A stretch of DNA of 64,000 bases from Heptranchias perlo (Eukaryota). The DNA is taken from positions 15,748,001-15,812,000 of the forward strand of contig NC_090338.1 in NCBI RefSeq assembly GCF_035084215.1. Direction: 5' to 3'. The notes under the pieces were generated by a model, which was given only the letters and a program-made list of their open reading frames with translations, had not been told where the DNA came from and ran no database searches. Position numbers and translations under genes: made by a program. Position 1 is the stretch's first letter. Every line of letters begins with the position of its first letter. Of the stretch, positions 11,633 through 58,570 are shown piece after piece.

Positions 11633-12168
11633 TGAGAACACGAAGTCTTTCCCCTACACTCCGTCTGCCACAACACTGCACCCACCCCACATCTCCTTCG
11701 GCACCGCCAACACTATTCTGTCACATCACCCTTCATACCCACTCACACCCCATCCTCATCTTACCTCCACCTACTCACCTCGCCAGTACTCATCCTGCCA
11801 CTAACACGCGACCCAATCCTCATACAATCTCATGGCTCCATCCCATACTCACCCTCTCGTGCATCTCCCTCACGGCCAGCCTCACTCAACCTGCCACCAC
11901 CTGTGCTGCAGCCACAGGGCATGCATCACATATGTGCAGTAGGCAGCGTAAGGCAAACGTCTCGTCAGCATGAACATAAGAACATAAGAAATTGGAGCAG
12001 GAGTAGGCCAATCGGCCCCTCGAGCCTGCTCCGCCATTCAATAAGATCATGGCTGATCTGATCCCAACCACAAATCTAAAGAACACAAGAAGTCGGAGCA
12101 GGACCCGGCCACATAGCCCCTGGGCCCTCTCCGCCACCCACAGGGCATTGACCGATCCGAACTCAGCT

Positions 12169-15117
12169 TCATGTCCAATTTCCTGCCCGCTCCCCATAAC
12201 CCCTAATTCCCTTTACTTCTAGGAAACTGTCTATTTCTGTTTTAAATTTATCTAATGATGTAGCTTCCACAGCTTCCTGGGGCAGCAAATTCCACAGACC
12301 TACCACCCTCTGAGTGAAGAAGTTTCTCCTCATCTCAGTTTTGAAAGAGCAGCCCCTTATTCTAAGATTATGCCCCCTAGTTCTAGTTTCACCCATCTTT
12401 GGGAACATCCTTACCGCATCCACCCGATCAAGACCCTTCACAATCTTATATGTTTCAATAAGATCGCCTCTCATTCTTCTGAACTCCAATGAGTAGAGTC
12501 CCAATCTACTCAACCTCTCCTCATATGTCCGCCCCCTCATCCCCGGGATTAACCGAGTGAACCTTCTTTGTACTGCCTCGAGAGCAAGTATGTCTTTTCT
12601 TAAGTATGGAGACCAAAACTGTATGCAGTATTCCAGGTGCGGTCTCACCAATACCTTATATAACTGCAGCAATACCTCCTTGTTTTTATATTCTATCCCC
12701 CTAGCAATAAAAGCCAACATTCCGTTGGCTTTCTTGATCACCTGCTGCACCTGCATACCAACTTTTTGATTTTCTTGCACTAGGACCCCCAGATCCCTTT
12801 GTACTGCAGTACTTTCCAGTCTCTCGCCATTAAGAAAATAACTTGCTCTCTGATTTTTCCTGCCAAAGTGCATAACCTCACATTTTCCAATATTATATTG
12901 CATCTGCCAAATCTTCGCCCACTCACCCAGCCTGTCTATATCCCCTTGCAGGTTTTTTATGTCCTCCTCACTCTCTACTTTCCCTCCCATCTTTGTATCA
13001 TCTGCAAATTTTGATATGTTGCACTCAGTCCCCTCCTCCAAATCGTTAATATAGATTGTAAAGAGTTGGGGACCCAGCACCGACCCCTGTGGAACACCAC
13101 TGGTTACTGGTTGCCAGTCCGAAAATGAACCATTTATCCCAACTCTCTGCTTCCTGTTCGATAACCAATCCTCCACCCATGCCAGAATATTACCCCCAAT
13201 CCCGTGATTTTTTATCTTAAGTAATAATCTTTTATGTGGCACCTTGTCGAATGCCTTCTGGAAGTCTAAATACACTACGTCCACTGGTTCCCCTTTATCC
13301 ACCCTATACGTTATATCCTCGAAGAACTCAAGCAAATTTGTCAGACATGACTTCCCCTTCATAAAGCCATGCTGACTTTGTCCTATTAAATTATGCTTAT
13401 CTAAATGTTCCGTTACTGTCTCCTTAATAATAGACTCCAAAATTTTACCCACCACAGATGTTAAGCTAACTGGCCTATAATTTCCAGCCTTCTGCCTACT
13501 ACCCTTTTTAAATAACGGTGTTACATTAGCAGTTTTCCAATCTGCCGGGACCTCTCCTGAGTCCAGGGAATTTTGGAAAACTATCACCAAAGCATCCACA
13601 ATCCCTACTGCCACTTCCCTCAAGACCCTAGGATGGAAGCCATCAGGTCCAGGGGATTTATCCGCCTTGAGTCCCATTATTTTACTGAGTACCATCTCTT
13701 GAGTGATTTTAATCGTATTTAGCTCCTCCCCCCCGAGAGTCCCCTGTTTGTCCAGTGTTGGGATATTCTTAGTGTCCTCTACTGTAAAGACTGAAACAAA
13801 ATATTTGTTCAGCATTTTTGCCATCTCCATGTTTCCCACCATTAATTTCCCGGTCTCATCCTCTAAGGGACCTATGTTTGCCTTAGCCACCCTTTTTCTT
13901 TTTATATAACTATAGAAACTCTTGCTATCTGTTTTTATATTTTTTGCTAATTTCTTTTCATAATCTAACTTCCCTTTCTTAATCAATCCTTTAGTTACTT
14001 TTTGCTGTCTTTTGAAGAATTCCCAATCTTCTATCCTCCCACTAAGTTTGGCTACCTTATATGTCCTTGTTTTTAGTCGGATACTATCCTTGATTTCTTT
14101 ACTTAGCCACGGGTGACTGTCATTCCTTTTACACCCTTTTTTCCTCAGTGGAATATATTTATTTTGAAAGTTGTAAAATAACTCCCTAAATGAACACCAC
14201 TGCTCATGTACCGTCTTACCCTTTAATCTATTTTCCCAGTCCACTTTAATCAATTCCGCTCTCATACCATCATAGTCTCCTTTATTCAAGCTCAGTACGC
14301 TTGTTTGAGAATCAACCTTCTCACCCTCTAATTGGATATGGAATTCAACCATGTTGTGGTCGCTCGTTCCAAGGGGATCCTTAACTAGGACATTATTAAT
14401 TAATCCTGACTCATTACACAGGACCAGGTCCAAGGTTGCCTGCCCCCTTGTAGGATCAGTTACATACTGCTCAAGAAATCCATCCCTGATGCACTCAATG
14501 AACTCGTCCTCAAGGCTGCTCTGCCCACTTTGATTTGTCCAGTTAATATGATAATTAAAATCCCCCATAATTATGGCTGTTCCCTTATTACATGCCCCGA
14601 CTATCTCCTGATTAATACTTCTTCCAGCAGAGTTGCAACTATTAGGAGGCCTAAATACTACGCCCACTAATGTTTTTTTTCCCTTATTATTCCTTATCTC
14701 CACCCAAACTGTTTCATTATCTTGATGCTTTGTCCCAATATCATTTCTCTGTATTACAGTGATTCCTTCCTTTATTAACATAGCCACCCCACCTCCCCTT
14801 CCTTCCTGCCTGTCCTTCCTGATTGTTAAATACCCTGGCATATTTAATTCCCAGTCGTTGTCACCCTGCAGCCATGTTTCTGTAATGGCCACAAGATCAT
14901 ACCCATACGTAGTTATTTGTGCCGTTAACTCGTCCATTTTATTACGAATGCTACGTGCATTCAGATAAAGAACTTTCAAATCTGTTTTGTGACGCTTAGT
15001 TCCTGCTTTTTCCTTTTTTAACACTTTACCTATTACTCCATACCTTCTGTCCCTTCCTGTTACGCTTTCCTCTCTCTCCCTGCTCAGGTTCCCAACCCCC
15101 TGCCACTTTAGTTTAAA
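12169..15117 (-). CDS. CR1 ORF2: AP endonuclease plus reverse transcriptase, uninterrupted
   Basis: YLNARS, ITETWL, MGDFN, SDH (APE); QHGF, YLDFQKAFD, GVPQGSVLGP, FADD (RT). Frame open from 15132; first AUG is at 14937, after YLNARS. Start coordinate given is the proposed slip site. Confidence 0.95.
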   Translation of the reverse strand, partial: FKLKWQGVGNLSREREESVTGRDRRYGVIGKVLKKEKAGTKRHKTDLKVLYLNARSIRNKMDELTAQITTYGYDLVAITETWLQGDNDWELNMPGYLTIRKDRQEGRGGGVAMLIKEGITVIQRNDIGTKHQDNETVWVEIRNNKGKKTLVGVVFRPPNSCNSAGRSINQEIVGACNKGTAIIMGDFNYHINWTNQSGQSSLEDEFIECIRDGFLEQYVTDPTRGQATLDLVLCNESGLINNVLVKDPLGTSDHNMVEFHIQLEGEKVDSQTSVLSLNKGDYDGMRAELIKVDWENRLKGKTVHEQWCSFRELFYNFQNKYIPLRKKGCKRNDSHPWLSKEIKDSIRLKTRTYKVAKLSGRIEDWEFFKRQQKVTKGLIKKGKLDYEKKLAKNIKTDSKSFYSYIKRKRVAKANIGPLEDETGKLMVGNMEMAKMLNKYFVSVFTVEDTKNIPTLDKQGTLGGEELNTIKITQEMVLSKIMGLKADKSPGPDGFHPRVLREVAVGIVDALVIVFQNSLDSGEVPADWKTANVTPLFKKGSRQKAGNYRPVSLTSVVGKILESIIKETVTEHLDKHNLIGQSQHGFMKGKSCLTNLLEFFEDITYRVDKGEPVDVVYLDFQKAFDKVPHKRLLLKIKNHGIGGNILAWVEDWLSNRKQRVGINGSFSDWQPVTSGVPQGSVLGPQLFTIYINDLEEGTECNISKFADDTKMGGKVESEEDIKNLQGDIDRLGEWAKIWQMQYNIGKCEVMHFGRKNQRASYFLNGERLESTAVQRDLGVLVQENQKVGMQVQQVIKKANGMLAFIARGIEYKNKEVLLQLYKVLVRPHLEYCIQFWSPYLRKDILALEAVQRRFTRLIPGMRGRTYEERLSRLGLYSLEFRRMRGDLIETYKIVKGLDRVDAVRMFPKMGETRTRGHNLRIRGCSFKTEMRRNFFTQRVVGLWNLLPQEAVEATSLDKFKTEIDSFLEVKGIRGYGERAGNWT

Positions 15118-15120
15118 CCC
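15108..15120 (-). promoter_or_regulatory. Candidate programmed -1 ribosomal frameshift site G_GGU_UUA_AAC_UAA
   Basis: Two overlapping X_XXY_YYZ heptamers in the ORF1 frame directly before its stop; ORF2 is open in the -1 frame. Confidence 0.6.
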
Positions 15121-16050
15121 TCCCCAACAGCACTAGCAAACACTCCTCCTAGGACAGCGGTCCCGGCCCTGCCCAGGTGCGGACCGTCCGGTTTGTACTG
15201 GTCCCACCTCCCCCAGAACCGTTTCCAGTGTCCCAGGAATTTGAATCCCTCCCCCTTGCACCATTCCTCTAGCCACGTATTCATTTGAAATATCCTCCTA
15301 TTTCTACTCTGACTAGCACGTGGCACTGGCAGCAATCCTGAGATTACTACCTTTGAGGTCCTATTTTTTAATTTACCTCCTAACTCCCTATATTCTGCTT
15401 TTAGGACCTCATCCCCTTTTTTACCTATATCGTTGGTGCCTATGTGCACCACGACAGCTGGCTGTTCGCCCTCCCCCTCCAAAATGTTCTGTAGCCGCTC
15501 CGAGACATCCTTGATCCTTGCACCAGGGAGGCAACACACCATCCTGGAGTCTCGGTTGCGGCCGCAGAAACGCCTGTCTATTCCCCTTACAATTGAGTCC
15601 CCTATCACTATAGCTCTGCCACTCTTTTTCCTCCCAGCCTGTGCAGCAGAGCTACCCAGGAAGTTGGCTGCTGCTGCCTTCCCCTGATAAGTCATCCCCC
15701 CCAACAGCATCCAAAGTGGCATATCTGTTTGAGAGGGGGATGGACACAGGGGACCCCTGCACTACCTGCCTGCATCTCTTACTCTTCCTGGTGGTCACCC
15801 ATTCACTTCCTGCCTGTATACCCTTTACCTGCGGTGTGACCAACTCGCTAAACGTGCCATCCACGAGTTTCTCTGCATCGCGGATGCTCCACAATGAGTC
15901 CACCCGCAGCTCCAGCTCCGAGATACGATCGGTCAGTAGCTGCAGGTGGACAGACTTCCCGCACACATGGTCGGCAGGGACACTGGTAGTGTCCATGACT
16001 TCCCACATCTTGCAGGAGGAGCATATCACGGGTGCGAGGTCTGCTGCCAT
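15108..16050 (-). pseudogene. CR1 ORF1 (zinc finger, coiled coil, SGNH esterase) with one frameshift near 15660
   Basis: CSSC...HVCGKS, LTDRISELELRVDSL; IVIGDSIVRG, VVHIGTND, DGPHL; split over two ORFs (15652-16050 and 15108-15722). Confidence 0.9.
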
Positions 16051-16207
16051 GACTTGCCTTAGCTGAGTTACCCCTTTTAAATTATGTTGAAATTAGAAAA
16101 TGTTAACTATACTAGGGACCTAGGTTCACTAAAAAAAACACTATCTGCTATAAAACCTGCAGATCTTCCCTTTCTTATTACTTTACTTACAGTAAAATGG
16201 TAGAAAT

Positions 16208-16411
16208 ACTCACCTGAACCTACTCACCAATCAGCTGCCTCCCCTGTGCCGCGTCACTTTCTGACTGGTGACGTCACCCCGAACTGCCGCTGGTCTCAGA
16301 GTCTCGCTCTCAGAGTAAGCTCTGGTCTCGCTCTCTCCGCACTGTTTATATCTCCGCTCTGGTCTCGCTCTCTCCCGCCGCTCACCGACTGGACTCTCGC
16401 TCTCTCCGCGC
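16208..16411 (-). promoter_or_regulatory. CR1 5'UTR internal promoter-like region
   Basis: GAGAGCGAGA repeats, TATAAA (16345-16350), CRE palindrome GGTGACGTCACC (16267-16278), CCAAT (16227-16231), two GTGAGT donor consensus sites (16227, 16213). Confidence 0.5.
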
Positions 16412-20399: not shown

Positions 20400-23080
20400 A
20401 TGGAAATGTAAATCTTTCTTTATATGGGGAAATGCTTTTGAGACACAGAGGTTGGGAGAGACAGAGAGTGAACCTCTAATGGAGTGAAGCGCTAACAGAG
20501 TGAGGACATTCAACTGGGAATTTGGTGAGTGTGGGAATTAGGTGCAGAGGGGGAAGGAGGTGCTTAGTGATTTAGACTAAGACTGAGTGGAGCATAAAGG
20601 GAATCGCATGAGGAATCAAAAGAAGCCAAGGAGGAATGTCGAGGGTAAGTCAGTAAGTAGTTATTTCATTGGTTATTGTTTTTAGTGGTTATTGGGGATT
20701 AAATGAGTGGGAGCAGAGGCTTGAGAGCAGAGTGGGACCAGCGACTGAGAGTAGGGCGGGATATAGGGTCGAGACCAACACAAACACAGGCCGAAATTTG
20801 TAAGAGTGACATCTGAGGACAGCGGGTTGATGACTGGTTGGTGAGTAATACATTTTTTTGCTCTCTGAGCTTGGGGAGTCGTATAAACTAGGAACCTATA
20901 ACATGCTAATACTTTATTAAATTAATAACTTAGACTAGATAAATTAATTTTATAAAAATAACTGAAAATAAACCAAGTGAATTCATTACATAATAACTTT
21001 AAATAAATAAAACCAGATTAGATCGAGATGGCAGTGCAAGTGATGTCCCATAATTGCAGCATGTGGGAGTTTGTGGAGAGCTGCGTGATCCCAGGCAACC
21101 ACATCTGTATTAAGTGTCTGCAACTCGAGGAACTTCAGCTCAGAGTGTTGAACTGGATTCCCGGGCCTTCTGTTTTACGCCTCGTGAAAGGAAGCGAGAA
21201 GGCCCGAGACTAACAGGTAGATGCCTAGAAAGGCATAGCCTGTGGGCCTGGAGGAGCAGGAGTGCTTTTCCCAGGCCCAACAAGCCTACCTGCACCGACC
21301 CCCCAACGATCCCGTGCCCACCCATGCCACCCGATTTCCCGCCCCCCCAACCCCATCCATAAAACAAAGACTTACCCGAAGACTTATCTGAACACGTCCT
21401 CTCCCTGACTGGTCTCTGGTCCAACTGAGACCAGCCTGTCAATCAGGCCGGTCAGTCGGACGGGAAACGGATAAAAAAAATAAAAGACATCCTTACGTCA
21501 AAATCGTAAGGATGTCCGTGGGTTTTCCATTCTCAATTTAATCCCCCCGCCCCTTCCCGGCTCGGTTTTAAAATTGAGCCCAGGATCTTAGCTCAGAAAA
21601 CAGGATGTAGAATCCGTATGGGTGGAGCTAAAAAATAACAAGGGGCAGAAAACAAGGGTGGGAGTAGTTTATAGGCCTCCTAACAGTGGTAATAGTGTTG
21701 GACAGAGTATAAATTAGAAGAACATGTAAGAAGGGTAATGCAAGAATTGTGGGGGCCTTTCATCTTCATGTAGACTGGGGAAACCAAATTGGCAAAAGTA
21801 GTTTGGATGTTGAGTTCATGGAATGCATTCGAGACAGTTTTCTAGAACAATATGTCGAGAAACCAACGAGGGAATAGGCTATTTTAGATCTAGTATTGTA
21901 TATTGAGATAGTGTTAATTAACAATCTTATTGTTAAGGATCCTCTGGGGAGGAATGATCATAATATGATGGAATTTCATAGAGTTTGAGAGCGATGTAGT
22001 TAAGTCCGAAACTAGGGCCTTAAATTTAAACAAAGCCAATTACGTAGATATGAGGAGCGAGTTGGCTAAGGTAGATTGGGAAATTAGATTAAAAGAAATT
22101 ATGGTAGATAAGCAATGGCAAACATTTAAAGAAATAATTCAAAATTCCCAACGAATATTCATTCCCTTGAGGAATAAAAACTCCACAGAAAAGTGATCCA
22201 ACCGTGGCTAACCAGAGAAGTTAAGGATAGTATTAGATTCAAAGAAGAGGCTTACAATATTGCCACGAAGAGTAGTAAGCCTGAGGATTGGGAGGGTTTT
22301 AGAAATCAGCAATGGATGACCTAGAAATTGTTAGAGGGAGAAAATTGAATATGAGAGTAAACTAGCAAGCAATTTAAGAACAGATTGTAAGAACTTCTAC
22401 AAGTATATAAAAAGTAAGAGATTAGCGAAAGTAAACGTGGGTCCCTTAGAGGCAGAGACAGGAGGGGGAATAAGGAAATGGCAGAGATGTTAAAAAAATA
22501 TTTTGTATCTGTCTTCACAGTAGAAGACACAAACAACATACTGGAAATAATGGGAACCAAGGGGCTAATGAGAGTGAGGAACTTAAAGCAATTTAGATTA
22601 GTAAAGAAAAAGCACTGGATAAATTAATGGGACTAAAAGTCAACAAACCCCTTGGACCTGATGGCCTACATCATAGGGTTTGAAAAGAGGTGACTGCAGA
22701 ATTAGTGGATGCATTGGTTTTGATCTTCTAGAATTCCCTAGATTCTAGAGCAGTCCCCGTGGATTGGAAGATAACAAATGTAATCCTGCAATTCAAGAAA
22801 GGAGGGAGAGAGAAAACAAGGCGACCGAGATGAGGAAAAATTTCTTCACTGAGGGTTGTGAATCTTTGGAATTCTCTACCCAAGAGGGCTGTGGATGCTC
22901 AGTCATTGAGTATATTCAAGACTGAGATCGATGGCTATTTGGACACTAAGGGAATCAAGGGATATGTGGACAAGGCGGGAAAGTGCAGTTGAGGTAGAAG
23001 ATCAGCCATGATCTTATTAAATGGCGGAGCAGGCTGGAATGGCCATATGGCCTACTCCTGTTTGTATTTCTTATGTTCTT
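20400..23080 (+). mobile_element. Rearranged CR1: 5'UTR, ORF1 start, partial MITE, ORF2 pieces, 3' end
   Basis: MAVQVMSHNCSMWE...HICIKCLQL at 21028; degraded APE/RT-linker 21590-22820; tail ending TTCTTATGTTC near 23080. Confidence 0.8.
21155..21581 (+). mobile_element. Partial GC-rich Harbinger MITE (family C)
   Basis: Colinear with 30766-31481; right TIR AAAATTGAGCCC; left part deleted. Confidence 0.85.
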
Positions 23081-24459: not shown

Positions 24460-27400
24460 GACAGAGCAAACAAACAAAAGACAACAAATAGGGTCCAGGT
24501 AAGAAAAAATGGTAATAAGACAAATAGGGCCATAGTACAAAAAAATGTAAAGGTTTCTAAAAATGTTAAAAAGACAAATCTAAAGGCAGTGTATCTGAAT
24601 GCACTACACATTCGTAATAAGGTAGATGAATTTACAGTGTAAATAGATGTAAACGGATATGATATAATAGCAATTGCAGAGACATGGCTGCAGGGTGACC
24701 AAGGCAGGGAATATCCAAGGGTATTCGATATTTAGGAAGGACAGGCAAAAAGGAAAAGGAGGTGGGGTGGCGTTGTTAGTAAAGGATGAGATCAGAGCAA
24801 TAGTGAGAAAGGATATTGGCTCAGAAAATCAAGATGTAGAATCAGTCTGGGTGGAGTTAAGAAGCACCAAGAGGCAGAAAACACTGGTGGGAGTTGTCTA
24901 TAGGCCTCCAAACAGTAGTGGTAATGTAGGGGATGGGATCAAACAGGAAATTAGAGATGCATGTAACAAGGGTACTACAGTAATCACGGGTGACTTTAAT
25001 CAGCATATAGACTGGCCAAACCAAATTAGCAATAATACTGTGGAGGATGAATTCCTGGAGTGTGTACGAGATGGTTTTTTAGACCAGGAGCCAACTAGGG
25101 AACAGGCTAGCCTAGATTGGGTACTGTGCAATGAGAAGGGGTTAATTAATAATCATGCTAAGCGGGGTCCTTCAGGGAAGAGTGACCATAACATGATAGA
25201 ATTCTTCATTAAGATGGAAAGTGAAGTAGTCCAATCCGAAACCAGGGTCCTAAATCCAAACAAAGGAAACTACAAAGGTATGAGGAGTGAGTTGGCTATG
25301 ACAGATTGGGAAGGTTCATTAAAAGACATGACGGTGGATAGGCAATGGATAACATTTAAGGAACAATTGCATGAATTGCAACAATTATACATTCCTTTCT
25401 GACACAAAAACACAATAGGAAAAGACGCCCAACAATGGCTAACAAAAGAAATTGAGGATAGTATTAGATCCAAAGAGGAGTCATATAAATTTGGCAGAAA
25501 AAGTAGCAAGCCTGAGGATTGGGAGCAATTTCGAATTCAGCAAAAAAGGACCAAGAGATTGATTAAGAGGGGAAAAATGGAGTATGAGAGTAAACTTGCA
25601 AGGAACATTAAAGTGGACTGTAAAAGCTTCTACAAGCATGTAAAAAGAAAAAAATTAGTGAAGATTAATGTAGGTCCCTTACAGTCAGAAATCGGAGAAT
25701 TTATAATGGGGAACAAGGAAATGGCAGAGCAATTAAACAAATACTTTGGTTCTGTCTTCATGAAAGAGGACACAAATAACGTCCCAGAAATGCTAGGGAA
25801 CCAAGGGACTAGTGAGAAGGGGGAATTAAAGGAAATTCGTATTAGTAAAAAAATAGTCCTGGAAAAATTAATGGGACTGAAAGCCAATAAGTCCCCAGGG
25901 CCTGATAATCTGCATCCCAGAGTACGAAAAGAGGTAGCCATGGAAATAGTGGATGCATCAGTTGTCATATTCCAAAATTCTATAGATTATGGAACAGTTC
26001 CTGCAGATTAGAGGGTGGCAAATGTAACCCCACGATTTAAAAAAGGAGGGAGAGAAAACAGGGAACTACAGACCGGTTAGCCTAACATCAGTAGTAGGGA
26101 AAATGCTAGAGTCTATTATAAAGGAAGTGATAACAGGACACTTAGAAAATATCAATGGGATTAGACAAAGTCAACATGGATTTAGAACATAAGAACATAA
26201 GAAATAGGAGCAGGAGTAGGCCAATCGGCCCCTCGAGCCTGCTCCGCCATTCAATAAGATCATGGCTGATCTGGTCCTAACCTCAAATCTAAAATCATGT
26301 CCAATTTCCTGCCCGCTCCCCGTAACCCCTAATTCCCTTTACTTCTAGGAAACTGTCTATTTCTGTTTTAAATTTATTCAGTGATGTAGCTTCCACAGCT
26401 TCCTGGGGCAGCAAATTCCACAGACCTACCATCCTCTGAGTGAAGAAGTTTCTCCTCATCTCAGTTTTGAAAGAGCAGCCCCTTATTCTAAGATTATGCC
26501 CCCTCGTTCTAGTTTCACCCATCCTTGGGAACATCCTTACCGCATCCACCCGATCAAGCCCCTTCACAATCTTATATGTTTCAATAAGATCGCCTCTCAT
26601 TCTTCTGAACTCCAATGAGTAGTGTCCCAATCTACTCAACCTCTCCTCATATGTCTGCCCCCTCATCCCCGGGATTAACCGAGTGAACCTTCTTTGTACT
26701 GCCTCGAGAGCAAGCATGTCTTTTCTTCAGTATGGACACCAAAACTGTATGCAGTATTCCACGTGGGGTCTCACTAATACCTTATATAACTGCAGCAATA
26801 CCTCCCTGTTTTTATATTCTATCACCCTAGCAATAAAAGCCAACATTCCGTTGGCCTTCTTGATCACCTGCTGCACCTGCATACTAACCTTTTATGAAAG
26901 AGAAATCATGTTTGACAAACCTACTGGAGTTTTTTGAGGATGTAACTGGTAGAATAGATAAGGGAGAACCAGTGGATGTGGTTTATTTGGATTTTCAGAA
27001 GGCCTTTGATAAGGTCCCACATAAGAGGGTAGTGTGCAAAATTAAAGCACATGGGATTGTGGGTAATATACTGGCATGGATTGAAAATTGTTTAACAGAC
27101 AGGAAACAGTGAGTAGGAGTAAATGGGACTTTTTCGGGGTGACTAATGGGGTACCGCAAGGATCAGTGCTTGGGCCCCAGCTATTCACAATATATATTAA
27201 TGATTTGGATGAGGGAACCAAATGTAATATTTCCAAGTTTGCTCACGACACAAAACTGGGTGGGATTGTGAGTTGTGAGGAGGATGCAAAGAGGCTTCAA
27301 GGCGATTTAGACAAGTTGAGTGAGTGGACAAATACATGGCAGATGCAGTATAATGTGGATAAATGTGACGTTATCTACTTCAGAAGGAAAAACAGAAAGG

Positions 27401-28170
27401 CAGAGTATTATTGAAATAGTGATAGATTGGGAAATGTTGATGTACAAAGGGATCTGGGTGTCTTTGTACACCAGTCACTGGAAGCAAACATGCAGGTGCA
27501 GCAAGCAGTTAGGAAGGCAAATGGTATGTTGGCCTTCATTGCAATACGATTTGAGTACAGGAGCAAGGATGTCTTACTGCAGTTATACAGGGCCTTGGTG
27601 AGACCACACCTGGAGTATTGAGTGCAGTTTTGGTCTGCTTACCTAAGAAAGGATATATTTGCCATAGAGGGAGTGCAGTGAAGGTTCACCAGACTGATTC
27701 CTGGGATGGCAGGACTGTCGTATGAGGAGAGATTGGGTCGACTCGGCCTGTATTCACTAGAGTTTCGAAGAATGAGAGGGGATCTCATTGAAACGTATAC
27801 AATTCTGACAGGGCTAGACAAACTGGATGCAGGAAGGATATTTCCCCTGGCTGGGGGGTCCAGAACAAGGGTTCACAGTCTCAGAATACGAGGTAGGACA
27901 TTTGGGACTGAGATGAGGAGAAATTTCTTCACTCAGAGGGTGGTGAGCCAGTGGAATTCTCTACCACAGAAGGCTGTGGAGGCCAAGTCACTGAATATAT
28001 TTAAAAAGGAGCTAGATAGATTTCTAGACACAAAAGGCATCAAGAGGTATGGGGAGAGAGAGGGAATATGGTATTGAGATAGAGGATCAGCCATGATCAT
28101 ATTGAATGGTGGAGCAGGCTCGAAGGGCCGAATGGCCTACTTCTGCTCCTATTTTCTATGTTTCTATGTT
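24460..28170 (+). mobile_element. Older CR1 with nearly complete but disrupted ORF2
   Basis: APE and RT motifs in several broken ORFs (24674-28077); TTTCTATG tail. Confidence 0.92.
26185..26891 (-). mobile_element. Young 5'-truncated CR1 nested in the older CR1
   Basis: Near-identical to the 3' end of 11975-16411; TSD TTA inside the host QHGF-MK codons. Confidence 0.95.
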
Positions 28171-34880: not shown

Positions 34881-34989
34881 CCAATAAATCTTCGGGGTGT
34901 GGGGGGGGGGGGGGAACATGTGAAATTTTGCGAATCCCTTCATCGCCTTGTGAGCAAATATCCCTAACACTCCAGGGTCATGCTGGACC

Positions 34990-37900
34990 ACTGCAAACTT
35001 TCCTCCTCCACCATGTACCACCTCTTCAGACCTTTCAGCGGCAAGGTTCGCTCATTCGGACGGATGGCCTCCATCTTAACTTTCTGGGTGCACAGATGTT
35101 GGCTGAGAATTTTGAGGTTGCCTTTGGAGAGCATTTAAACTATTTGAGCCAAGATTAGATAAACCAGCCAGTAGTGGGGTAGGTAGCAATAATAGACTAC
35201 CTCGATTTTCTAAAGGTAAGGCACAGAAAGTGAATGGTACCCAGAGTCAGATCACTGACAAACCATTGAAATGCTTCTATGCTAATGCAAGAAGTCTTAG
35301 AAATAAACTGCTGGAACTACAATCTTACGCAACATTAGAAAACCCAGATGTTATTGGTGTTACTGAAATATGGCTAGATTTCAATGATGGTGCTGAATGC
35401 CGTATCGCAGGGTATCACTGTTTTAGGAAAGATAGAATAGGTCAGAAGGGAAGTGGTGTAACCTTATTTGTCAGAAATAAGTTGCCTCCCGTGGCAAGAG
35501 ATATTAGCACATCAGCAGGAGCTGAAGCTGTTTGGTTTCAATTAGTCCAAGCCAATGGCCCCAGGTTTATGATTGGCACCTGTTATAGACCTCCAGGACA
35601 GGCATCCCTGGCTGATGAGAAACTTAATTCACAAATTTCTGAGGCTTCTTGCCTGGACCCAATTTGCATTATGGGAGATTTCCACTTTATTTTTATTAAA
35701 TGATCTGATGGTGGAACCATCTAGTGTAGTGGGGAGAGCAGCTGAGACTTTTGTAGACACCATAACTGATTGTTTCCTTACACAGCATGTTGGTGAGGCA
35801 ACTAGGGATAAACAAATTCTCAATCAGGTGTTTAGCAGCGACCCTGGTGCTGTATCAAACCTCTGTGTGGGGAACACCTGGCCAGCTCTGATCATAACAT
35901 CATTAGGTTTAATCTTATTGGCCAATCCAAGGCTGCAGACAATCTAATGCTGGTCCCTAATTTAAAGAGGTCTAACTTTACAAAAATGGCTGAAGAACTG
36001 GCAAAAGTTGACTGGGCAACTCTCCTAGATAGGCAATCAAGTACTGAGGACAAATGGGTTCTATTTAAAACCATTCTCAAACAGAATAAAGCCATAGATG
36101 TCCCAATGGTTAAAAGAAGGGCAAATGGTAAAACAAAATCATTTTGGTTGACGAGGAATGTAGAGAGGCAAATTCGATCGAAACAAACGGCGTTCTATAG
36201 ACTTACTGCATTTAATTCGCAGGAGAACAGGGAAAAATATTGCATGCAATTAAGGAAGACAAAAATAGCCATAAGATTAGCCAAGCGATCTCTGGAAAAG
36301 AAGAAGGTGTGGTAATTGTGGCAGTAACAGGAAAAGCTTTTTTAGTATTGTCAGTAGTCAGAAGACCAGAAAGGACCACATCAGGCCACTAAAGGATACT
36401 GGAGGGCAGATTCAAACTGATTCTTGGGTTATGGGAGAGTTGCTAAATGACTATTTAGAATTAGTCTATACTCCTGTAGACGATGTTTATGTTCCAGATA
36501 AGGGGTGCTTTGTATTGAATAGCATTATTAATATTAAAATAGATAGTAATGTCCTCTTGGATAGGTCAGGAAAGCTCAAAGTTGATAGGGCTCCAGGTCT
36601 GGATAATATTCATCCAAGGAGATTAAAGAGATGGGGCAGGTACTCTGTAAGTCCCTTGCCCGGATCATTAATAGTTCAATAGAGTCCGGGATAGTTCCCT
36701 TAGACTGAAAGCTAGCTCATGTAGTTCCTATTTTTAAGAAAGGGGGCAAATCAGAGTCAGTGAACTACAGACCTATCAGCGAAGATGCTAGAAGGGATCA
36801 TAAGAGATGCCCTTTATGATCACTGGGAAAGGAAAGGGGCTATTAGAAATTCTCAACATGACTTTTGAAAAAATAGGTCGTGCCTAACAAGTCGCTTGGG
36901 TAGTGGATGAGGGTGATCCGGTAGATATTGTCCACCTGGACTTTCCAAAAGCAGATGATAAGGTACTTCACGCTTTGTTAATTCACAAGATAGAATCTTG
37001 TGATACAAGTAGAAATTTGAAGAGCTGGATTTGGAATTGGCTCCAATCCTGCAGCCAAAAGGTTGTAGTTAACATAAATGGTTCAGCTTGGAGACATGTT
37101 ACGAGTGGTGTCCCCCAGGGATCGGTCCTAGGCCTGCTATTCTTCATGGTCTTTATTAATGACCTGGACGGTGGTGTTGGGAGTTTGGTAAGTACGTTTG
37201 CAGATGACACCAAAATTTGTGCAAGGGTTAAGATGGTAGAGGAATGCAATCAAATCCAAAAAGGTTTAGATGTGCTGAGGGAATGGGCCACACATTGGCA
37301 AATGTTGTTTGATTTAGATAAATGTAGTGTCATGCATGTTGGTAGGATCAACACTGAATACATGTATCATTTGCAGGGAACAAACAATACTGAAAGAGAT
37401 TGAGTGACAAAAAGATCTTGGTGTTATTGTACATAGGTCACTAAAGATTCATGACCAATGTAGAGAAACTGTAGCTAAAGCTAATAAGGAATTGGATTGT
37501 ATTAATAGACCCATTCATTATAAATCAAGGGACACCATTTTGACACTATACAGGTCACTGGTCAGACTGTGCCGAACTTTGGTCCCCCCACATGGTGGGT
37601 GATTTAGTGACCTTGGAAAAAATCGAGAGGAGATCTACAAGAATGATTCCAAGGTTAAAGAACCTCAGCTACTCAGATAGGCTCAGGGACTTTGGTGTAT
37701 TTACTTTAGAGCAGCGTGGACTTAGAGATGACCTGATAAAGGTTTATAAAATAATTAAAGGACAGGCTATCATCCCTATTGATAGATTATTCCAGTTTAA
37801 CTGGTTGGGGAGGACCAGGGGAGATGAGTTTAAACTATGGAAGAGCAGGAATAGACTGAATGTTAGGTGGTTCTTCTTTTCCCAGAGAATTGTGAGCCTC

Positions 37901-38300
37901 TGGAATATATTGCGAGCTGGTGTTGTGGTGAGTGCTGACTCTCTGTGCCTTCAAGAGGCAGCTGGACTGGTTCCTGACTGGGGCAGAGAATGTACCATTT
38001 AGGTTAGTGTTTTTATAGATAACACTTGGTCCATGTGATCTTCTGGACTGGTTTCGATTGCTTGAGGGGGTAGAAGAAGAATTTTACAGAGTATTTTTTC
38101 TCATATTGACCCTGGGTTTTTTCTGTTTTTTGCCTCTCCCAGGAGATTACATGGCTGTGGGGGTGGATGTGAGGGAGGGAGGCCAGGGGAGGGAAGAAGT
38201 ATTTAGCCATGGTGGTCCGGCCACCATGGTCTGGGGCAGGCTTGATCGGCCAGCTGTTCTTTTCCTGCCCGTCAATTTTATATGTTCGTATGTTTGTATG
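34990..38300 (+). mobile_element. Divergent CR1-clade LINE (ORF1 esterase end plus broken ORF2)
   Basis: DGLHLNFLGAQML then TTTAAAC (35134-35140); FYANARS, GVTEIWL, MGDF, GVPQGSVLG, FADD. Clearly more distant from the other CR1s here. Confidence 0.88.
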
Positions 38301-38542
38301 TTCTGCCCCAGAGCCTCCATTGTGATCTTTGATAACAAATGCAAAGAGTTCATGGACGTTTTTGTCCAAAATCAAGGCAGCCTCTGCCTCCTCTGCTCCC
38401 TTCTCTCCCCCATCTTACACACTGTTAGTGATCCTAGAATTAGATCAGGAAGACATTTGCTGATCTCCCAAGGGTAGCTAAGATAAGTGTGCTCACACTT
38501 TGTCTCCTTTTACAATCTTACCTTCCAATTCATGCTATCAGT

Positions 38543-41740: not shown

Positions 41741-44700
41741 AATCATAGAAACTTATGGCTTAGAAGGGGGCCATTTGGCCCATCATGTCCGTACCAGCCG
41801 AGAAAGAGCTATCCAGCTTAATCCCACTTTCCAGCACTTGGTCCGTAGCCCTGTAAGTTACGGCACTTCAAGTGCACATCCAAGTACTTTTCAAATGAGT
41901 TGAGTATTTCTGCCTCTACCACCCTTTCAGGCAGTGAGTTCCAGACCCCCACCACCTTCTGGGTGAAAGATTTTCTCCTCAGCTCCCCTCGAATCTTTCT
42001 ACTTAATAACCTTAAACCTATGCCCCCTGGTCACTGAGCCCTCTGCTAAGGGAAATAGGTCCTTCCTATTCATTCTACCCAGGTCCCTCATAATTTTGTA
42101 GACTTCAATTAAATCACCCCTCAGCCTCCTCTGTTCCAATGAAAACAACCCCAGCCGATCCCATCTTTCCTCACAGCTAAAATTCTCCATTCCTGGCAAC
42201 ATCCTCACAAGTCTCCTCTGCACCCTCTCTAGTGCAATCACATCTTTCCAATAATGTGATGACCAGAACTGTACGCAGCACTCGAGCTGTGGCCTAACTA
42301 GTGTTTATACAGTTCTAGCATAACCTCCCTACTCTAATATTCTATGCCACGGTTAATAAAGGTATCCCATATACCTGCTTAACCACCTTCTCTACCTGTC
42401 CTGCTAACTTCAGGGATCTATGGACATGCACTCCAAGATCCCTCTGTTCCTCTACACCTCCCAGTGTCTTCCCGTTTATTGTGTATTCTGTTTCTTTGTT
42501 TGCCCTCCCCAAATGCATTACCTCACACTTAAGAACGTAAGAACATAAGAAATAGGAGCAGGAGTAGGTCATCCAGCCCCTCGAGCCTGCTCCGCCATTC
42601 AACAAGATCATGGCTGATCTTCTACCTCTGCCATTTTCCTGCACCAACCCCATATCCCTTGATGCCTTTAATATCCAGAAATCTATTGATCTCTGTTTTG
42701 AATGTACTCAATGACTGAGCCTCCACAGCCCTCTGGGGTAGAGAATTCCAAAGATTCACCACCCTCTGTGTGAAGAAATTTCTCCTCATCTCAGTCCTAA
42801 ACGGCCTACCCTTTATTCTGAGACTGTGACCCCCGGTTCTAGGTTCCCCAGCCAGGGGAAACATCCTCCTTGCATCTACCCTGTCGATCCCTGTAAGAAT
42901 TTTGTATGTTTCAATGAGATCACCTCTCATTCTCCTAAACTCTAGAGAATACAGGCCTAGTCTACTCAATCTCTCCTCATACGACAATCCCACCATCCCA
43001 GGAATCAGTCTGGTGAACCTTCGTTGCATTCCCTCTATGGCAAGTATATTCTTTCTTAGGTAAGGAGACCAAAATTGTACACAATACTCCAGGTGCGGCC
43101 TCACCAAGGCCCTATATAATTGTAGTAAGACATCTTTACTTCTGTACTCAAATCCTCTTGTAATAAATATACCATTTGCATTCCTAATTGCTTGCTGCAC
43201 CTGCATGTTAGCTTTCAGTGACTCATGTACAAGGACACCCAGATCCCTTTGAAAATCAACATTTCCCAATCTCTCACCATTTAAAAAATACTCTGCATTT
43301 CTGTTTTCCTACAAATGTGGATAACTTCACATTTTTTCACATTATATTCCATCTGCCCTGTTCTTGCCCACTCACTTAGCCTGTCTATATCCCCTTGAAG
43401 CCTCTTTGCATCCTCCTCACAACACATTCCCACCCAGTTTTGTGTCATCAGCAAACTTGGAAATATTACATTTGGTTCCCTCATCCAAATCATTGATATA
43501 GATTGTGAATAGCTGGGGCCCAAGTACCGGTCCCTGCAGTACCCCACGAGTCACAGTCTGCCAACCTGAAAAAGACCTGTTTATTCCTACTCACTGTTTA
43601 CTGTCCATTAACCAATTCTCAATCCATGCCAGTATATTACCCCCAATTCCATGTGCTCTAACTTTGTTCACCAGTGTGGGACCTTATCGAAAACCTTCTG
43701 AAAATCCAAATACACCACATCCACTGGTTCTCCCTTATCTATTCTACTCATTACATCCTCAAAGAATTCCAATAGGTTTGTCAAACATGATTTCCTTTTC
43801 ATAAATCCGTGGTGACTCTGCCAAATCTTCTTATTATTTTCTAAGTGTCTTGTTATCACATCCTTTGTAATATATTCTAGCATTTTCCCGATTACAGATG
43901 TCAGGCTAACCGGTCTGTAGTTTCCTGTTTTCTCTCTCCCTCCTTTCTTAAATAGTGGGGTTACATTTGCTACCCTCCAATCTGCAGGAACCGTTCCAGA
44001 ATCTATAGAATTTTTGAAGATGACAACCAATGCATCCACGATTTCTATAACGACCTCTTTCAAAACCCTGGGATGTCGATCATCAGGTTCTTGGGATTTA
44101 TCAACTTTCAGTCCCATTAATTTCTCTAGTACTATTTTTTCACGAATACTAATTTCCTTCAGTTACTCATTCTTGCCAGACCCTTGGTTCTCTAGTATTT
44201 CTGGGAGGTTTTTTGTGTCTTCTTCCGTGAAGACAGACACAAAGGGCCCGATTTTAGCAGGGGTGCGGGTTCTCGGCGGGTGGGCAAGCGGGCGCGTGGG
44301 TAACGCGCCCGGTGAAATTAGTGGGTTTCCCGCGCGATCGTAGCAGGCAACGCACTAATTGGAGCCACTTACCTGCTCCTCCAGGTTCCCCGCTGCTGGT
44401 CTGCGCGTTGGGCGGGCTGCGCATGCGCAGTAAGATCAGTCTGCTGGAGGCGGTCTATTTAAAGGGGCAGTCCTCCACTGACAGATGCTGCAACAAACAG
44501 CAAAGATGACCGCATGGAGCAGCCCAGGGGGAAGGCTGCTCCCAGTTTAATGATGCCTCACCCCAGGTATCAATACATGGGGTGAGGAGGAGGGGGAGGA
44601 CAGAGATCTTCCACCCGGTGGGCGTGAGGAAGCGGCCTGCCTCTGCCACCAGGAAGGCCTGGCTCGAGGTGGCAGAGGAGGTCACCAGCGCCACCAACAT

Positions 44701-47700
44701 ATCGCCCACCTGCACACAGTGCAGGAGGCGGTCCAATGAGCTCAGTAGGTCAGCCACAGTGAGTACACGTAGTCTTTCCCCTACACTCCGTCTGCCACAT
44801 CACTGCCCCCACCCCACATCTCCTTCGGCACTGCCAACACTACTCTGTCACATCACCCATCAGACCCACTCAAACCCCATCCTCATCTTACCTGCACCTA
44901 CTCACCTCGCCAGTACTCACCCCGCCACTACCACGCAACCCAATCCTCATACAATCTCATGGCTCTATCCAATACTCACCCTCTCGTGCATCTCTCTCAC
45001 GGCCAGCCTCACTCAACCTGCCACCACCTGTGCTGCAGCCACAGGGCATGCATCACATATGTGCAGTAGGCAGCGTAAGGCAAACGTGTCGTGAGCATGA
45101 AGGGGATGCACAAGGGTGTTTGAGGGTTTGTCATGGTTGTTACTTCTATTGAATTTCAGAACAACTCACATCACACATTATATTGGCACCACTACTGCCA
45201 TGTCTTCGCGAATCCTGTCCAGTTTGTGCAATAATGCCCGCTCCTGGGTATCACTATGAGGACCCACCACTGATGCCACCCATTGTATCACTGCAGAGTG
45301 GGTGTAGGTGTATTTGCAGGGCTTTTCTGCGCAGACGACTGAGAGACATCGGCGATGTCCCCGGTTGCACCCTGGAAGGCTGTGGAGGAGAAGTTCGGGA
45401 GGGCAGTGGTGACTTTGACAGTGACAGGTAGGAAGATGGTGCTCAGGCCAGCCAGGAGCAGCTCGGCATGAAAGAGGCTGCAGATGTCCACGGCTACATG
45501 TCGAGTGACTCTGAGCCTCCATGTGTACTACTGCTTAGAGAGGTCCAGGAGGCTGAGCCTCGGTCTGTGGAACCAGCGACGCATCTCTCTCTGCGGTAGC
45601 CCTCCCTCCTGCTGTGCAGGTGGATGTGTCACAGCACTCTGTTGTGGAGCTCCACGTGTCAGAGGTGGACGGCATGGATGGCGAGGCTGATGAGGCTGGT
45701 GATGCTGTTCGCCCTCCGAGGAGGTCATGACTGCAGCTACGGCGGCCCCCATCCGCAAGATGTACATCTGAGGGGGTCCGCAAGGTAGGTACATGTCTCC
45801 GGACCCCGGGGTAAGTGTGCAGGTTGGTGACTTTGACCGTCAGGAGGAGGGTGGTGCAGGCCAAACTTTGTCCCAAGTGACAGAGTGGCCTCCTGCAATG
45901 GGTGAGGGTCTCCCCCCACCCCCCCTGTCAAATGGACCTTTGCAGCTGCCACAGGCTGACAGCTGCAACACGTCCATTCGATCTGGGAGTGTTTCCCCCA
46001 GTGTGTGAAACAGTCCCATGTTTATCCAAAATCACACACAGTCCCTTAATCAGGTCAGTTAATGACCTGAAATAGCTACATAAATACTCTCAAGTGGCAT
46101 CCCGCTGGCTTTAATTGCCTGCAGGATTCGCACCAGTGGGGGCTGCGCGCGCACGCCAGCGCGTCAGCGGGGAACCTGGAAGTGGGTGTGATCGAGGCGC
46201 GATCCGGTCGGGATCCTGGATTTTACGATTTTCGAGGCCCCCCCGCCGAGAACGCACCTGATAGCGGGTGCTAAAATCGGGCCCAAAGTATTTGTTTAAT
46301 TTCTCTGCCATTTCCTTATTCCCCACTATAAATTCTCCCGTCTGTGTCTGTAAGGGACCCACATTTGCCTTTGCCAGTCTTTTCCTTTTTACATACCTAT
46401 AGAGGCTTTTACAGTCCATTTTTATGTTTCTCGCTACTTTACTCTCAGATTCTATTTTCCCTTTCTTTATCAATTTCTTGATCCTCCTTTGCTGAATTCT
46501 AAAATGCTCCCAATCCTCAGGCTTACTGCTTTTTCTGGCAAATTTATATGCCTCTTTCTTTGATTTAATATTCTCTTTAATTTCTTTTATTACCATGGTT
46601 GAACCAATTTTCCTGTTGGGTTTATGTGCCTTAAAGTTAAATATATTTATTGCAAATTATGTATTAATTCTTTAAATGCTAGCCATTGCCTGTCCACCGC
46701 CATACCTTTTAATGTAGTTCCCCAATCATCTATCGGCAACTTGCACCTTATACTTTCGTAATTTCCTTTGTTTAGATTTAAGACCCTAGTTTCAGATTGA
46801 ACTACATCACTTTCAAACTTAATGAAGAATTCTATCATATTATGGTCACTCTTCCCTAAGGGCTCCTTTACAACAAGATTATTAATTAACCCTTTCTCAG
46901 TGCTCAATACTAGATCTAAAATAGCCTGTTCTCCAGATTGAATTCCATTTGCCACTTTTCTGCCCACCTGACCAGTCCATTGATATCTTCCTGCAGTCCA
47001 CAGCTTTCCTCCTCACTATCAACCACATGGCCAATTTTTGTATCATCTGCAAACTTCTTAATCATTCCCCTTGCATTTCGGTCTAAATCATTAATATATA
47101 CCAAAAATGCAAGGGACCTAGTACTGAACCCTGTGGGACCCCACTGAAAACAGCCTTCCAGTCACAAAAACACCCGTTAACCATTACCCTTTGCTGCCTG
47201 CCACTGAGCCAATTTTGGATTCAATTTGTCACTTTCCCTTGGATCCCATGGGCTTTTACTTTTCTGACCAGTCTGCCATGTGGGACCTTGTCAAAAGCCT
47301 TGCTAAAATCTATGTAGATTACATCAAATACGCTATCCTCATCGTCCCCCCCCCTTGTAACCTCCTCAAAATGAGGAGGAGCTCAAAAATCTCCATATTA
47401 CAAAATAGATATGGAGGCACTTGAGAAGATATGAAAAAGATTTACAAGGATGATACCAGAACAGAGAGGTTATAACTATCAGGAAAGATTGAACAGGCTC
47501 TTTTCTCTGGAAAAGTGAAGGCTAAGAGCTCACCTTTTACAGATCTTTAAAATTATAAAGGACTTTGATAGGGGGGTCGACGTAGAGAGGATGTTTCCAA
47601 TTATGGGGAAGTTCAAAACTAGGGGCCATAGTATAAGATATAGTCACTCATTAATGCAATAAAGAATTCAGGAGAAACTTCTTAACCCAGAGAGTTGCTG

Positions 47701-56465: not shown

Positions 56466-57519
56466 TGTACTTGAGGCGACCCATTGCCTGCAATTCCTGC
56501 GCCATGTGGGAACTTCAGGACGCTTCATGTGTCCTGGAGGGCCACGTGTGCAGGAAATGCCTCCAGTTGCTCGAGCTCAAGCTGAAGGTTTCTGATCTTC
56601 ACAGACACATCTGGAGTCACTGCAGAGAATAAGGGAGACTGAAGGTTTCCTGGATCGTACGTTCCAGGAGTTGGTCACCCCGCAGCCACAGAGAGTTCAG
56701 GATAGCAAGTGGGTGGTCATCCAAAAGGGTAGGAAGAGGCAGGAAATGCAGGAATCTTCTGGGTGTGTGGCACTCGGCATTCAATACCAGTGAGCGTGAC
56801 AACACGTCAGAGGAGTGCAGTCTTGAGCATGGGGCAAAGGACTGCACGGGGATCACTGTGAAGTGTAGAAATGCAGTAGTCAAAGGGGATTTGATAGACG
56901 GAGGACAGACAGGCGATTCTGTGACTGCTGACGTGAGTCTTGCATGGTGTGTTGCCTCCCTGGTGCCAGGGTAAAGGACATCACGGAGAGGGTGCAGAAC
57001 GTTCTGCGGGGGGAAGGTGAACAGCCAGAAGTCGTGGTCCATGTGGGAACTAACGACAGGAAAGAGATCCTGCGGTCTGAGTTTCAGGAGCTAGGGAGGA
57101 AGTTAAAAGTCAGGATTCAAAGGTAGTAATCACTGGATTACTCCCAGTGCCATGCGCTAGTGAGTACAGAAATAGAAAGATAAAGCAGGTTAATGCGTGG
57201 CTACACACATGGTACAAGAGGGAGGGCTCCAGATTCTTGGGGCATTGGGACCAGTTCTGGGGCAGGAGGAACCTGATCAAGATGGACGGGTTGCACCTCA
57301 ACAAAGATGGGACCAATTAAGTTAATTAGTGCTGTGGGGGCGGGTTGAAACTTTAAACTAATGTGTCAGAGGGATGGGCACCAAGATGTAGCATTGGAAA
57401 GGAGAAACAAGGTGCACAAAGGATTGGGAGAGACAGATAGTGTAAGAAATAATACAGTATTAGGTAGGATCAGCCTAAGAGAGAATACGAGAAGGTCGAA
57501 GATAGGTTTAGAGTGCATG

Positions 57520-58570
57520 GGGGTGATTTTAAAATGGAGCCGGGAAGAGGGCGGGGGGGTCAAATTGAGGTTGGGAACCCATTAGTACGGGTTTCCCAGA
57601 CTTCCTTACGATTTTGACGTCAGACGTCTTTTATTTTGTTTTTGTCGGTTTCCCATCCGACTGACTGGCTGATTGACAGGCTGGTTTCAGTCGGACTGGA
57701 GGTCCGTCTTCAGGCAAGTTTGCAGGTAAGTCTTTGTTTGAATGGATGAGGGAGGCAAGGGGGGGCATGGGTGAGCACGGCGGGGCATGGGTGGGCACGG
57801 GTTGCATGGATGGGCACGGGTTGCAGGTGTGGGCATGAGGGCATAGGTTGGCATAGGTGAGCACAGGTTGGCATGGGGGTCGCGAGTCATGGGGGATGGG
57901 ATCTGTGGTCAATCACGGGGGGGTGTCGTGATTGGGGATCATCGCGGGGGCCCGCAATCGTTGAGGGGTAGGATTGGGGGTGGGTGGATCAGAGTTGAGG
58001 GGGGATGATTGGGGTCAGGGGGAGGATCAGAGTTGGGGGGAGGATCGGGTTGTGGGATCGGGATCCAGGGGTCGGAGGTGGAGGATCGGGGTCGTGGGTT
58101 GGTGGATCGTGAGTTGAGGTCGGGGGTCCGCGATCATGGATCCCCTGACCCCGATGGGTCCGCGATTGGAGGGTCGGGGGTCCGCGATCGTTGGGGCGGT
58201 CGGTGCAGGTCGGCTTGTTGGGCCTGAGAGAAGCACTCTTGCTCCTCTGGGCCCACAGCTGTGCCTTTCAAGGCACCTACCTGTTAGTCTTGGGCCTTCT
58301 CGCCTCCTTTCACGAGGCGTAAAACAGAAGGCCTGGGAATCCCGGCCGCCCTGCATTGAAATTGGGAATTGGAGACAAATGGAGGCCTGAACCTCCTTGA
58401 AAGGTTTTAAGGGCCATCCCACCTCCTGAGAGCGGGTTGGTTACCCGCCCCTCGTCCATGCCGGTGCAAACCGGAAATGGGCTGGTTGGAGGCGGGTTGG
58501 GGGCAGGTTGGAAATGGTGGCAATTTTCAATGCCCCCCGACCCCAACCTACCCGTTTTTTAATTTGAAAC
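57520..58570 (-). mobile_element. GC-rich Harbinger MITE family C, reversed, one TIR lost
   Basis: Reverse complement of 30558-31481; interrupts host codons LECM...RSVVNK. Confidence 0.88.

Follow-up and report, generated by a model that had tools for sequence, protein, structure and literature searches.

A conserved U_UUA_AAC heptamer at the ORF1/ORF2 junction of a divergent CR1 LINE lineage in the genome of Heptranchias perlo: a candidate -1 frameshift signal

CR1 elements are abundant in the genome of Heptranchias perlo, and copies of several ages lie in the window examined here, a stretch of 64,000 nucleotides. One of them, at positions 35033-38304, is a dead, 5′-truncated copy of an old CR1 LINE family, termed family B in this work. 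Its features, all on the forward strand, are as follows.

35033..38304, + strand: decayed CR1 LINE copy of family B; the end of ORF1, then ORF2 broken by stops and frameshifts
35033..35140, + strand: 3′ end of ORF1, encoding an SGNH esterase; DGLH motif at 35063
35116..35143, + strand: ORF1/ORF2 overlap; the ORF2 frame opens past TGA 35113-35115 and is ATG-free upstream of the heptamer
35134..35140, + strand: slippery heptamer T_TTA_AAC (U_UUA_AAC), the predicted -1 shift site
35141..35143, + strand: ORF1 stop position, TAT here
35141..35283, + strand: linker in the ORF2 (-1) frame, with no stop and no AUG in family B
35284..35703, + strand: start of the APE endonuclease; NARS at 35284; PF03372, E=1.2e-7
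36828..37400, + strand: reverse transcriptase core; PF00078, E=2.6e-15; 45% identity to the young family A
38281..38304, + strand: 3′ tail, three TATGTT units at 8-nt spacing

Matches between this copy and further copies in family B begin at 35033 and extend to 38292. The esterase end, DGLHLNFLGAQMLAENFEVAFGE (35063-35131), is followed by CAT (35132-35134), TTA (35135-35137), AAC (35138-35140) and TAT (35141-35143), exactly the CAT TTA AAC TAT that an earlier, sequence-only reading of this DNA had singled out. The frame entered at 35134, in which no stop occurs between 35116 and 35703, reads FKLFEPRLDK...KPLKCFYANARS and gives a hit to Exo_endo_phos (E=1.2e-7); its first Met is codon 146 (35569), beyond NARS at codon 51, in line with the same reading, which had described a -1 frame open into the endonuclease with no AUG. 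Relative to other family B copies, the linker of the window copy has undergone two 6-nt deletions, both of which keep the frame. ORF1 of this family ends in TTA AAC plus a stop position, and ORF2 lies in the -1 frame without an AUG until codon 146.

CR1 elements characteristically end in short tandem 8-nt repeats rather than poly(A) and are 5′ truncated, and the window copy has both such repeats and such a truncation. Its ORF2 contains an APE endonuclease followed by a reverse transcriptase, as expected for a CR1-clade LINE. The esterase remnant at 35033..35140 is too short to match any Pfam family on its own; in longer family B copies, GDS, HVGTND and DGLH motifs are present and the alignment with CR1 esterases shows 30-35% identity, which provides the SGNH esterase ORF1 of the vertebrate CR1 type. 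Known CR1-clade LINEs with an SGNH esterase, represented by the ZfL2-1 esterase (PDB 4C1B; PMC3905857), are similar in combining a CX2C..CX2C plus SGNH ORF1, an APE plus reverse transcriptase ORF2 and 8-nt tail repeats, and the ORF1 of family A matches both PF13472 (E=1.6e-12) and 4C1B (E=4e-32), whereas family B differs from the known CR1 esterases in sharing only 30-35% identity with any that was retrieved.

A search of the same genome with the window copy produced 41 matches, and 40 copies were aligned; columns were counted in 36 of them, one from each of four near-duplicate pairs having been removed. An exact TTTAAAC is found at the ORF1 end in 36 of the 40 copies, and the codon after it is TAG in 22, TAA in three and a sense codon in 15. 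Since TAG or TAA follows the heptamer in 25 of 40 copies, the TAT of the window is a decayed TAG, as had been suspected from its being a single base off a stop. In the -1 frame, no column across 294 nt (98 codons) has ATG or a stop as the commonest state among the 36 copies, and the other two frames contain 5 and 12 stop columns in the linker up to NARS. Among the first 30 copies, the linker length is in frame in 22, of which 19 are open and none contains an in-frame ATG. The ORF2 frame opens only 21 nt (6-7 codons) upstream of the heptamer. The family as a whole therefore retains TTTAAAC, lacks an in-frame AUG before NARS and has a stop after AAC, which bears out at the level of a genome-wide alignment what had been read from one decayed copy.

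The two parts of this junction have mutated very differently. Only 3 changes have occurred in the heptamer of family B compared to 11.1 expected from the base-corrected background, a deficit that is not clear within any single one of the six other families analyzed (A and C-G). By contrast, the stop position has 16 base changes versus 5.4 expected (P=2e-4, a post hoc value, with the four near-duplicates dropped), of which nine are transversions and which are scattered across the tree. Of the 40 copies (L001-L030 and L296-L305), 18 have an altered stop; a sense codon stands in its place in 15 of these, eight different ones in all, and ORF1 is extended in the stop-less copies by a few codons, seven in most. 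No such excess is observed in the other six families (9 changes versus 7.0 expected). Either a mutation hotspot or a loss tolerated or favoured in source copies could account for the excess of stop loss in family B. As the stop has changed beyond the background, the adjacent stop may be dispensable in this family. One copy, L002 (G000:C14:15908664-15909119), is the sister of the window copy at 95% identity and sits on the opposite strand at a distance of some 125 kb; the two have TAT and part of the 5′ flank in common and probably represent a local duplication.

Family B is the most divergent CR1 lineage in this genome. The longest single-frame hits between its reverse transcriptase and that of family A show 45-47% identity; sauropsid-type CR1s are closer to family A, at 53%. 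A quick reverse transcriptase tree places it on its own branch with a support of 100 and a length of 0.5, family B being represented by three rows (B_window, B_L276 and B_L277) that are linked to the window copy by blastn; the rows B_L279, B_L282, D_L288, F_L291 and possibly those of family G were ignored, as they are reverse transcriptases of nested other elements. In the same tree, which was built without named L2 or jockey references, family B clusters with the shark and sauropsid-type CR1 rows (SH-aLRT 88-89). Its esterase is 30% identical to that of family A and at most about 36% identical to any of 120 homologues, and forms its own branch in the esterase tree (support 100, length 1.32). 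The description of this lineage as highly divergent thus holds in both trees, and its linker is indeed unlike that of the full-length CR1, the first 9 nt being all that the linkers of families A and B share by blastn.

The same junction is present in two further CR1 copies of the window.

15108..15120, - strand: junction of the young full-length CR1 (GGT TTA AAC TAA), family A; kept in 30 of 30 copies
57352..57361, + strand: junction of a third CR1 copy (TTTAAAC TAA), family C; 7 extra nt just upstream in this copy

The family A copy, located at 11975-16411 on the reverse strand, has an intact ORF2 frame of 987 codons and an ORF1 with a frameshift. Family A is abundant, with 55,868 candidates at first look, and very young, the 150 that were scored all showing 99-100% identity; the closest named match of its ORF1 is from Pristiophorus japonicus (78%). 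Heptamer, register and frame are the same here as in family B, as the earlier reading had stated, with GGT TTA AAC TAA running from 15120 to 15108. The family C copy has a 12-nt deletion as well as the 7 extra nt before its heptamer (57300-57361), and an insertion of approximately 1 kb of GC-rich sequence splits the start of its endonuclease (57520-58570). Additional CR1 ORF2 fragments, with 20-94% identity to family A, occur across 3544-62353 of the window, long pieces being found at 21490-22830, 24535-28071 and 42631-47370. TTTAAAC occurs 14 times in the 64-kb window, compared to 12.4 expected, and the chance of its being fixed at an ORF1 end is about 1e-4 per site.

Relatives of the family A junction were collected by protein search, and five further families were sampled. 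In all seven shark families, ORF1 ends in NNT TTA AAC TAR, and the heptamer is exact in 30/30 copies of A, 36/40 of B, 15/20 of C, 14/15 of D, 12/15 of E, 11/15 of F and 15/15 of G. An unselected 800-kb sample of the genome gave the heptamer at 13 of 13 esterase ends, 10 of them exact and followed by TAA or TAG and three differing by one base. A scan of metagenomes revealed 46 loci, 16 of which extend to the ORF1 end; TTTAAAC is found there in 12, in register in 10 and after indels in two, and the remaining four of the 16 are decayed. These copies, which appear to be avian, cluster with lizard and turtle proteins in the esterase tree. At the DNA level, taxon breadth comprises this genome and the 16 metagenome copies. 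At the protein level, LN is the C-terminus of 84 of the 98 ORF1 homologues that extend to the esterase end, in sharks, rays, the teleost Paramormyrops, the coelacanth Latimeria, frogs, turtles and squamates. The -1 frame runs on as FKL across the junction in three records (P0124, P0038 and P0160), which come from rays and a distant lineage; they are mutated copies or gene models, so that a functional fusion is not implied.

Several other records deserve mention. CR1 sequence has been absorbed into two ray gene models, P0026 and P0124. P0006, a shark-type CR1 ORF1 with 64% identity to family A, is labelled as an SGNH hydrolase of Pseudomonas aeruginosa, and this label probably reflects host contamination. 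The eight loci detected in prokaryotic genomes are weak matches (25-30%) that resemble ordinary bacterial SGNH hydrolases and in which no CR1 junction was seen, and no relatives were found in the viral contigs scanned.

The heptamer could owe its persistence to the protein that it encodes: the esterase might need a C-terminal Leu-Asn, with inheritance and AT-rich codon bias doing the rest and ORF2 being expressed in some unconnected way, for instance from a transcript of its own or by internal entry. It is true that the terminal Asn is invariant (30/30 in alignment A1) and would lie in the last helix region of the fold. However, the synonymous choice is fixed at three positions. The codon test set comprised the seven families and nine metagenome copies, the latter picked because their register was kept. 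In it, Leu may be preceded by G, H, A, T, S or C, yet the third base of that preceding codon is T in 16/16 cases, Leu is always TTA (16/16) and Asn always AAC (16/16), whereas the conserved upstream D, G, L, H, L and G residues of the DGLHL motif, which served as a control, use 2-5 synonymous codons each. TTA and AAC make up 25% and 34%, respectively, of the corresponding codons in family A, and the rough chance of finding TTA and AAC in four further lineages is 2e-6, an optimistic value considering that the lineages share ancestry. Related esterases, moreover, end in GN, FF, VCS or VRT, and in all five resolvable families it is precisely the -1 frame that is open across the linker. We therefore regard a purely protein-level explanation as very unlikely. 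Because the codons of the heptamer are invariant while the control codons vary, comparison of these sequences shows conservation at the nucleotide rather than the amino-acid level across lineages.

Inheritance, with purifying selection acting in a lineage that separated long ago, is the best reading of the shared junction, not convergence or separate origin. The sequence-only reading had proposed independent conservation of a recoding signal; fixation at the DNA level across lineages agrees with this proposal, independent origin does not, the signal having apparently been kept by descent, and recoding itself is a prediction from the arrangement of the frames. Owing to shared ancestry, the lineage counts given above are not independent of one another.

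The stretch between the heptamer and NARS is informative with regard to how ORF2 may be translated. It is open in the -1 frame over 52 codons in family A, 60 in C, 71 in D and 94 in G, and in the five resolvable families (A, B, C, D and G) it is free of stops in this frame, compared to 3-14 stop columns in the other frames, the probability of such an open linker being 0.003-0.03 per family. In families E and F, the register cannot be fixed because a G-run after the stop varies in length, and reading through in the -1 frame is seen in only four of the 15 family F copies. As the linker is kept open, translation should traverse it from near the heptamer. In family B, TTG at +144, immediately ahead of the endonuclease, is a near-cognate codon at which translation might begin; as the sole start it was rejected, since 48 stop-free codons would be left unexplained. 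A splice or branch-point reading of CTAAT/CTAG was ruled out as well, as the bases past the stop differ between families.

Two routes could bring ribosomes into the linker at this point. The best reading of the sequences is that they do so by -1 ribosomal frameshifting at U_UUA_AAC, which would yield an ORF1-ORF2 fusion, and we consider this probable. Alternatively, ribosomes might terminate at the ORF1 stop and restart just downstream in the -1 frame, at an AUG or a non-AUG codon, releasing free ORF2p, with TTTAAAC-TAR acting as a cis signal for termination or ribosome retention. Stop-start coupling through UAAUG is a reported mechanism (PMC2699510), and in L1 the AUG of ORF2 can be replaced by any sense codon (PMC1965478). 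AUG-independent reinitiation in L1 and UAAUG coupling (CHV1, SART1) are likewise ways of translating a second ORF from a bicistronic LINE RNA, and some CR1 lineages do possess an AUG or UAAUG at the corresponding place. Eight of 15 sauropsid-type copies have an in-frame AUG at codons 4-6 after the heptamer; a UAAUG stop-start overlap at codon 4 is found in 5/20 copies of family C, 2/15 of family E and one sampled copy; the near-cognate codons AUU, AUA and AAG occur at codon 4 in families C, E and A; and 19 of 20 family C copies have a Met three codons before NARS, inside strand 1 of the endonuclease. Reinitiation would also account for the open linker.

However, L1 differs from CR1 in that its ORFs do not overlap and no slippery heptamer is needed, and family B has no start near the stop. 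A downstream -1 ORF that overlaps ORF1, is open from the heptamer and has no start of its own is found in families A, B, D and G, whereas in family C and the sauropsid-type copies this ORF contains in-frame AUGs. In families B, D and G, neither AUG nor a near-cognate is the commonest codon at positions 4-6; the codons there are GTT GAG in B (codon 4 GTT in 33/40 copies and codon 5 GAG in 37/40), AAT AGT in D and GAG TGG in G. Codon 5 varies even among sister lineages (ATG, GTG, TTG, TCG, TGG). Neither the occurrence of an XXXYYYZ heptamer exactly in the -1 register nor the T kept as third base in codons for six different amino acids is predicted by reinitiation, and the under-mutated heptamer and over-mutated stop of family B are the opposite of what a mechanism dependent on the stop would predict. 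We thus consider it unlikely that reinitiation is the route, but it is the most serious of the alternatives. A combination is also conceivable: frameshifting would be the ancestral, general mode, and a post-stop AUG would have been gained in some lineages for free ORF2p. The heptamer is retained even in copies with an AUG, but the AUG may be just a Met at a tolerant position, and this combination, which overlaps with frameshifting as the best explanation, has only a very small probability of its own.

The fusion could also be produced by ordinary translation if an extra base were introduced at the RNA level in the T and A runs, by polymerase slippage, editing or a small splice. In principle, the TTT and AAA runs could slip and the same fusion would result. 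However, these runs are merely three bases long, and retrotransposed copies preserve the RNA as cDNA; the heptamer has gained a base in 0/40 copies of family B and 0/30 of family A, which makes this the least probable of the explanations considered. In contigs from four runs presumed to be RNA, the rows listed contained no indel or joint at the heptamer, an observation that argues neither way.

In the frameshifting model, ribosomes translating active elements would slip back one base on U_UUA_AAC just ahead of the ORF1 stop, by tandem slippage of the Leu and Asn tRNAs onto UUU AAA. The product would be a minor fusion protein containing esterase, endonuclease and reverse transcriptase, and the ORF2p:ORF1p ratio would be low, in the manner of retroviral Gag/Gag-Pol. 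The observed heptamer indeed follows the X_XXY_YYZ pattern in the ORF1 frame; its fixation in exact register, the short overlap and the open, AUG-free -1 linker, whose length varies, agree with the predictions of -1 frameshifting, and Atkins et al. 2016 (PMC5009743) rank U_UUA_AAC and G_GGA_AAC among the most shifty heptamers on mammalian ribosomes. The -1 sites of coronaviruses and retroviruses described there share the identical U_UUA_AAC, the X_XXY_YYZ register, a short overlap and a pol-type ORF in the -1 frame. The CR1 junction differs from these viral sites in that it lies in a LINE, is known from sequence alone, has a 0-frame stop that abuts the heptamer and shows no predicted stem-loop or pseudoknot at 5-9 nt, the spacing at which a canonical viral stimulator is located.

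Folding of the 80 nt downstream of the heptamer revealed no shared or significant structure in the seven families and seven metagenome copies, with z-scores ranging from -2.7 to +1.8 and nearly all near 0, under a fold model that does not include pseudoknots or G-quadruplexes. Folding of the 60 nt upstream gave no shared significant structure either, and an Rfam search over 34900-35500 returned one chance match (E=0.62) and nothing relevant. The stimulator, if there is one, is therefore probably not a folded 3′ structure, and candidates are a pause at the adjacent stop or a G-run 8-12 nt downstream. The first is weakened by family B, in which the stop is the most mutated part of the junction. 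The second is present in most lineages and absent from family B, and G-quadruplexes are described in PMC5009743 as boosting frameshifting only in synthetic constructs. In the metagenome contigs L162-L199 and in families A, C and G, the ORF2 frame continues past the stop as F-K-L-x-[M/L/V/S/W]-[K/Q/R]-G-x-G; this post-stop G-run or peptide motif, shared by sauropsid-type and shark lineages, is absent from family B.

Frameshifting in LINEs has a precedent, since the Dictyostelium elements TRE5-A and TRE3-A, non-LTR retrotransposons of the L1 clade, are stated to require a -1 frameshift for ORF2 in PMC5911963. These elements differ from CR1 in clade, ORF1 type and host, which is amoebozoan, and are likened to it by this stated requirement alone. 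For CR1 itself, our full-text literature search found no report of frameshifting; classic descriptions of CR1 lay outside its scope and may already note the overlap or the heptamer. ORF2 translation or frameshifting in CR1-type elements was not found to be mentioned in the portion consulted of PMC3905857 (Schneider et al. 2013), nor was CR1 frameshifting in the corresponding portions of PMC5009743, PMC5911963, PMC1965478, PMC7175516, PMC2817409, PMC5203782 and PMC4255032.

A more distant group of esterase ORF1 proteins (P0105 and P0172-P0198) may extend this pattern. In 13 of its 28 members the protein ends in GN, mostly as QGN, and the others end near FF or GFL. Judged from protein sequence, the GN end is compatible with another heptamer, G_GGA_AAC, and the ends near FF or GFL with other slippery heptamers; no natural fusion records were found among the protein records of the GN-ending group. 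It is possible, albeit somewhat short of an even chance in our estimation, that the whole clade, sharks through to reptiles and birds and probably also invertebrate lineages with G_GGA_AAC, shifts to the -1 frame on the final two ORF1 codons without the help of a folded structure, and so yields an esterase-endonuclease-reverse transcriptase fusion; such a system would be Gag-Pol-like, more than 400 million years old and so far unnoticed in a LINE that is dominant in many vertebrate genomes.

Because family B is the most divergent lineage and has neither a start codon nor a G-run at the junction, it isolates the heptamer as the shared feature, and it adds an unusually informative lineage to those with this clade-wide candidate -1 signal in CR1 LINEs. 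CR1 elements are the main LINEs of birds (PMC2817409), and the mode of ORF2 translation in CR1 is not addressed in the literature searched. If CR1 elements do frameshift, the active enzyme would be an ORF1-ORF2 fusion bearing the esterase, the annotation of CR1 ORFs and assays would change, and the ratio of ORF1 to ORF2 would be set as in retroviruses. They would also provide a natural -1 site that seemingly works without a folded stimulator.
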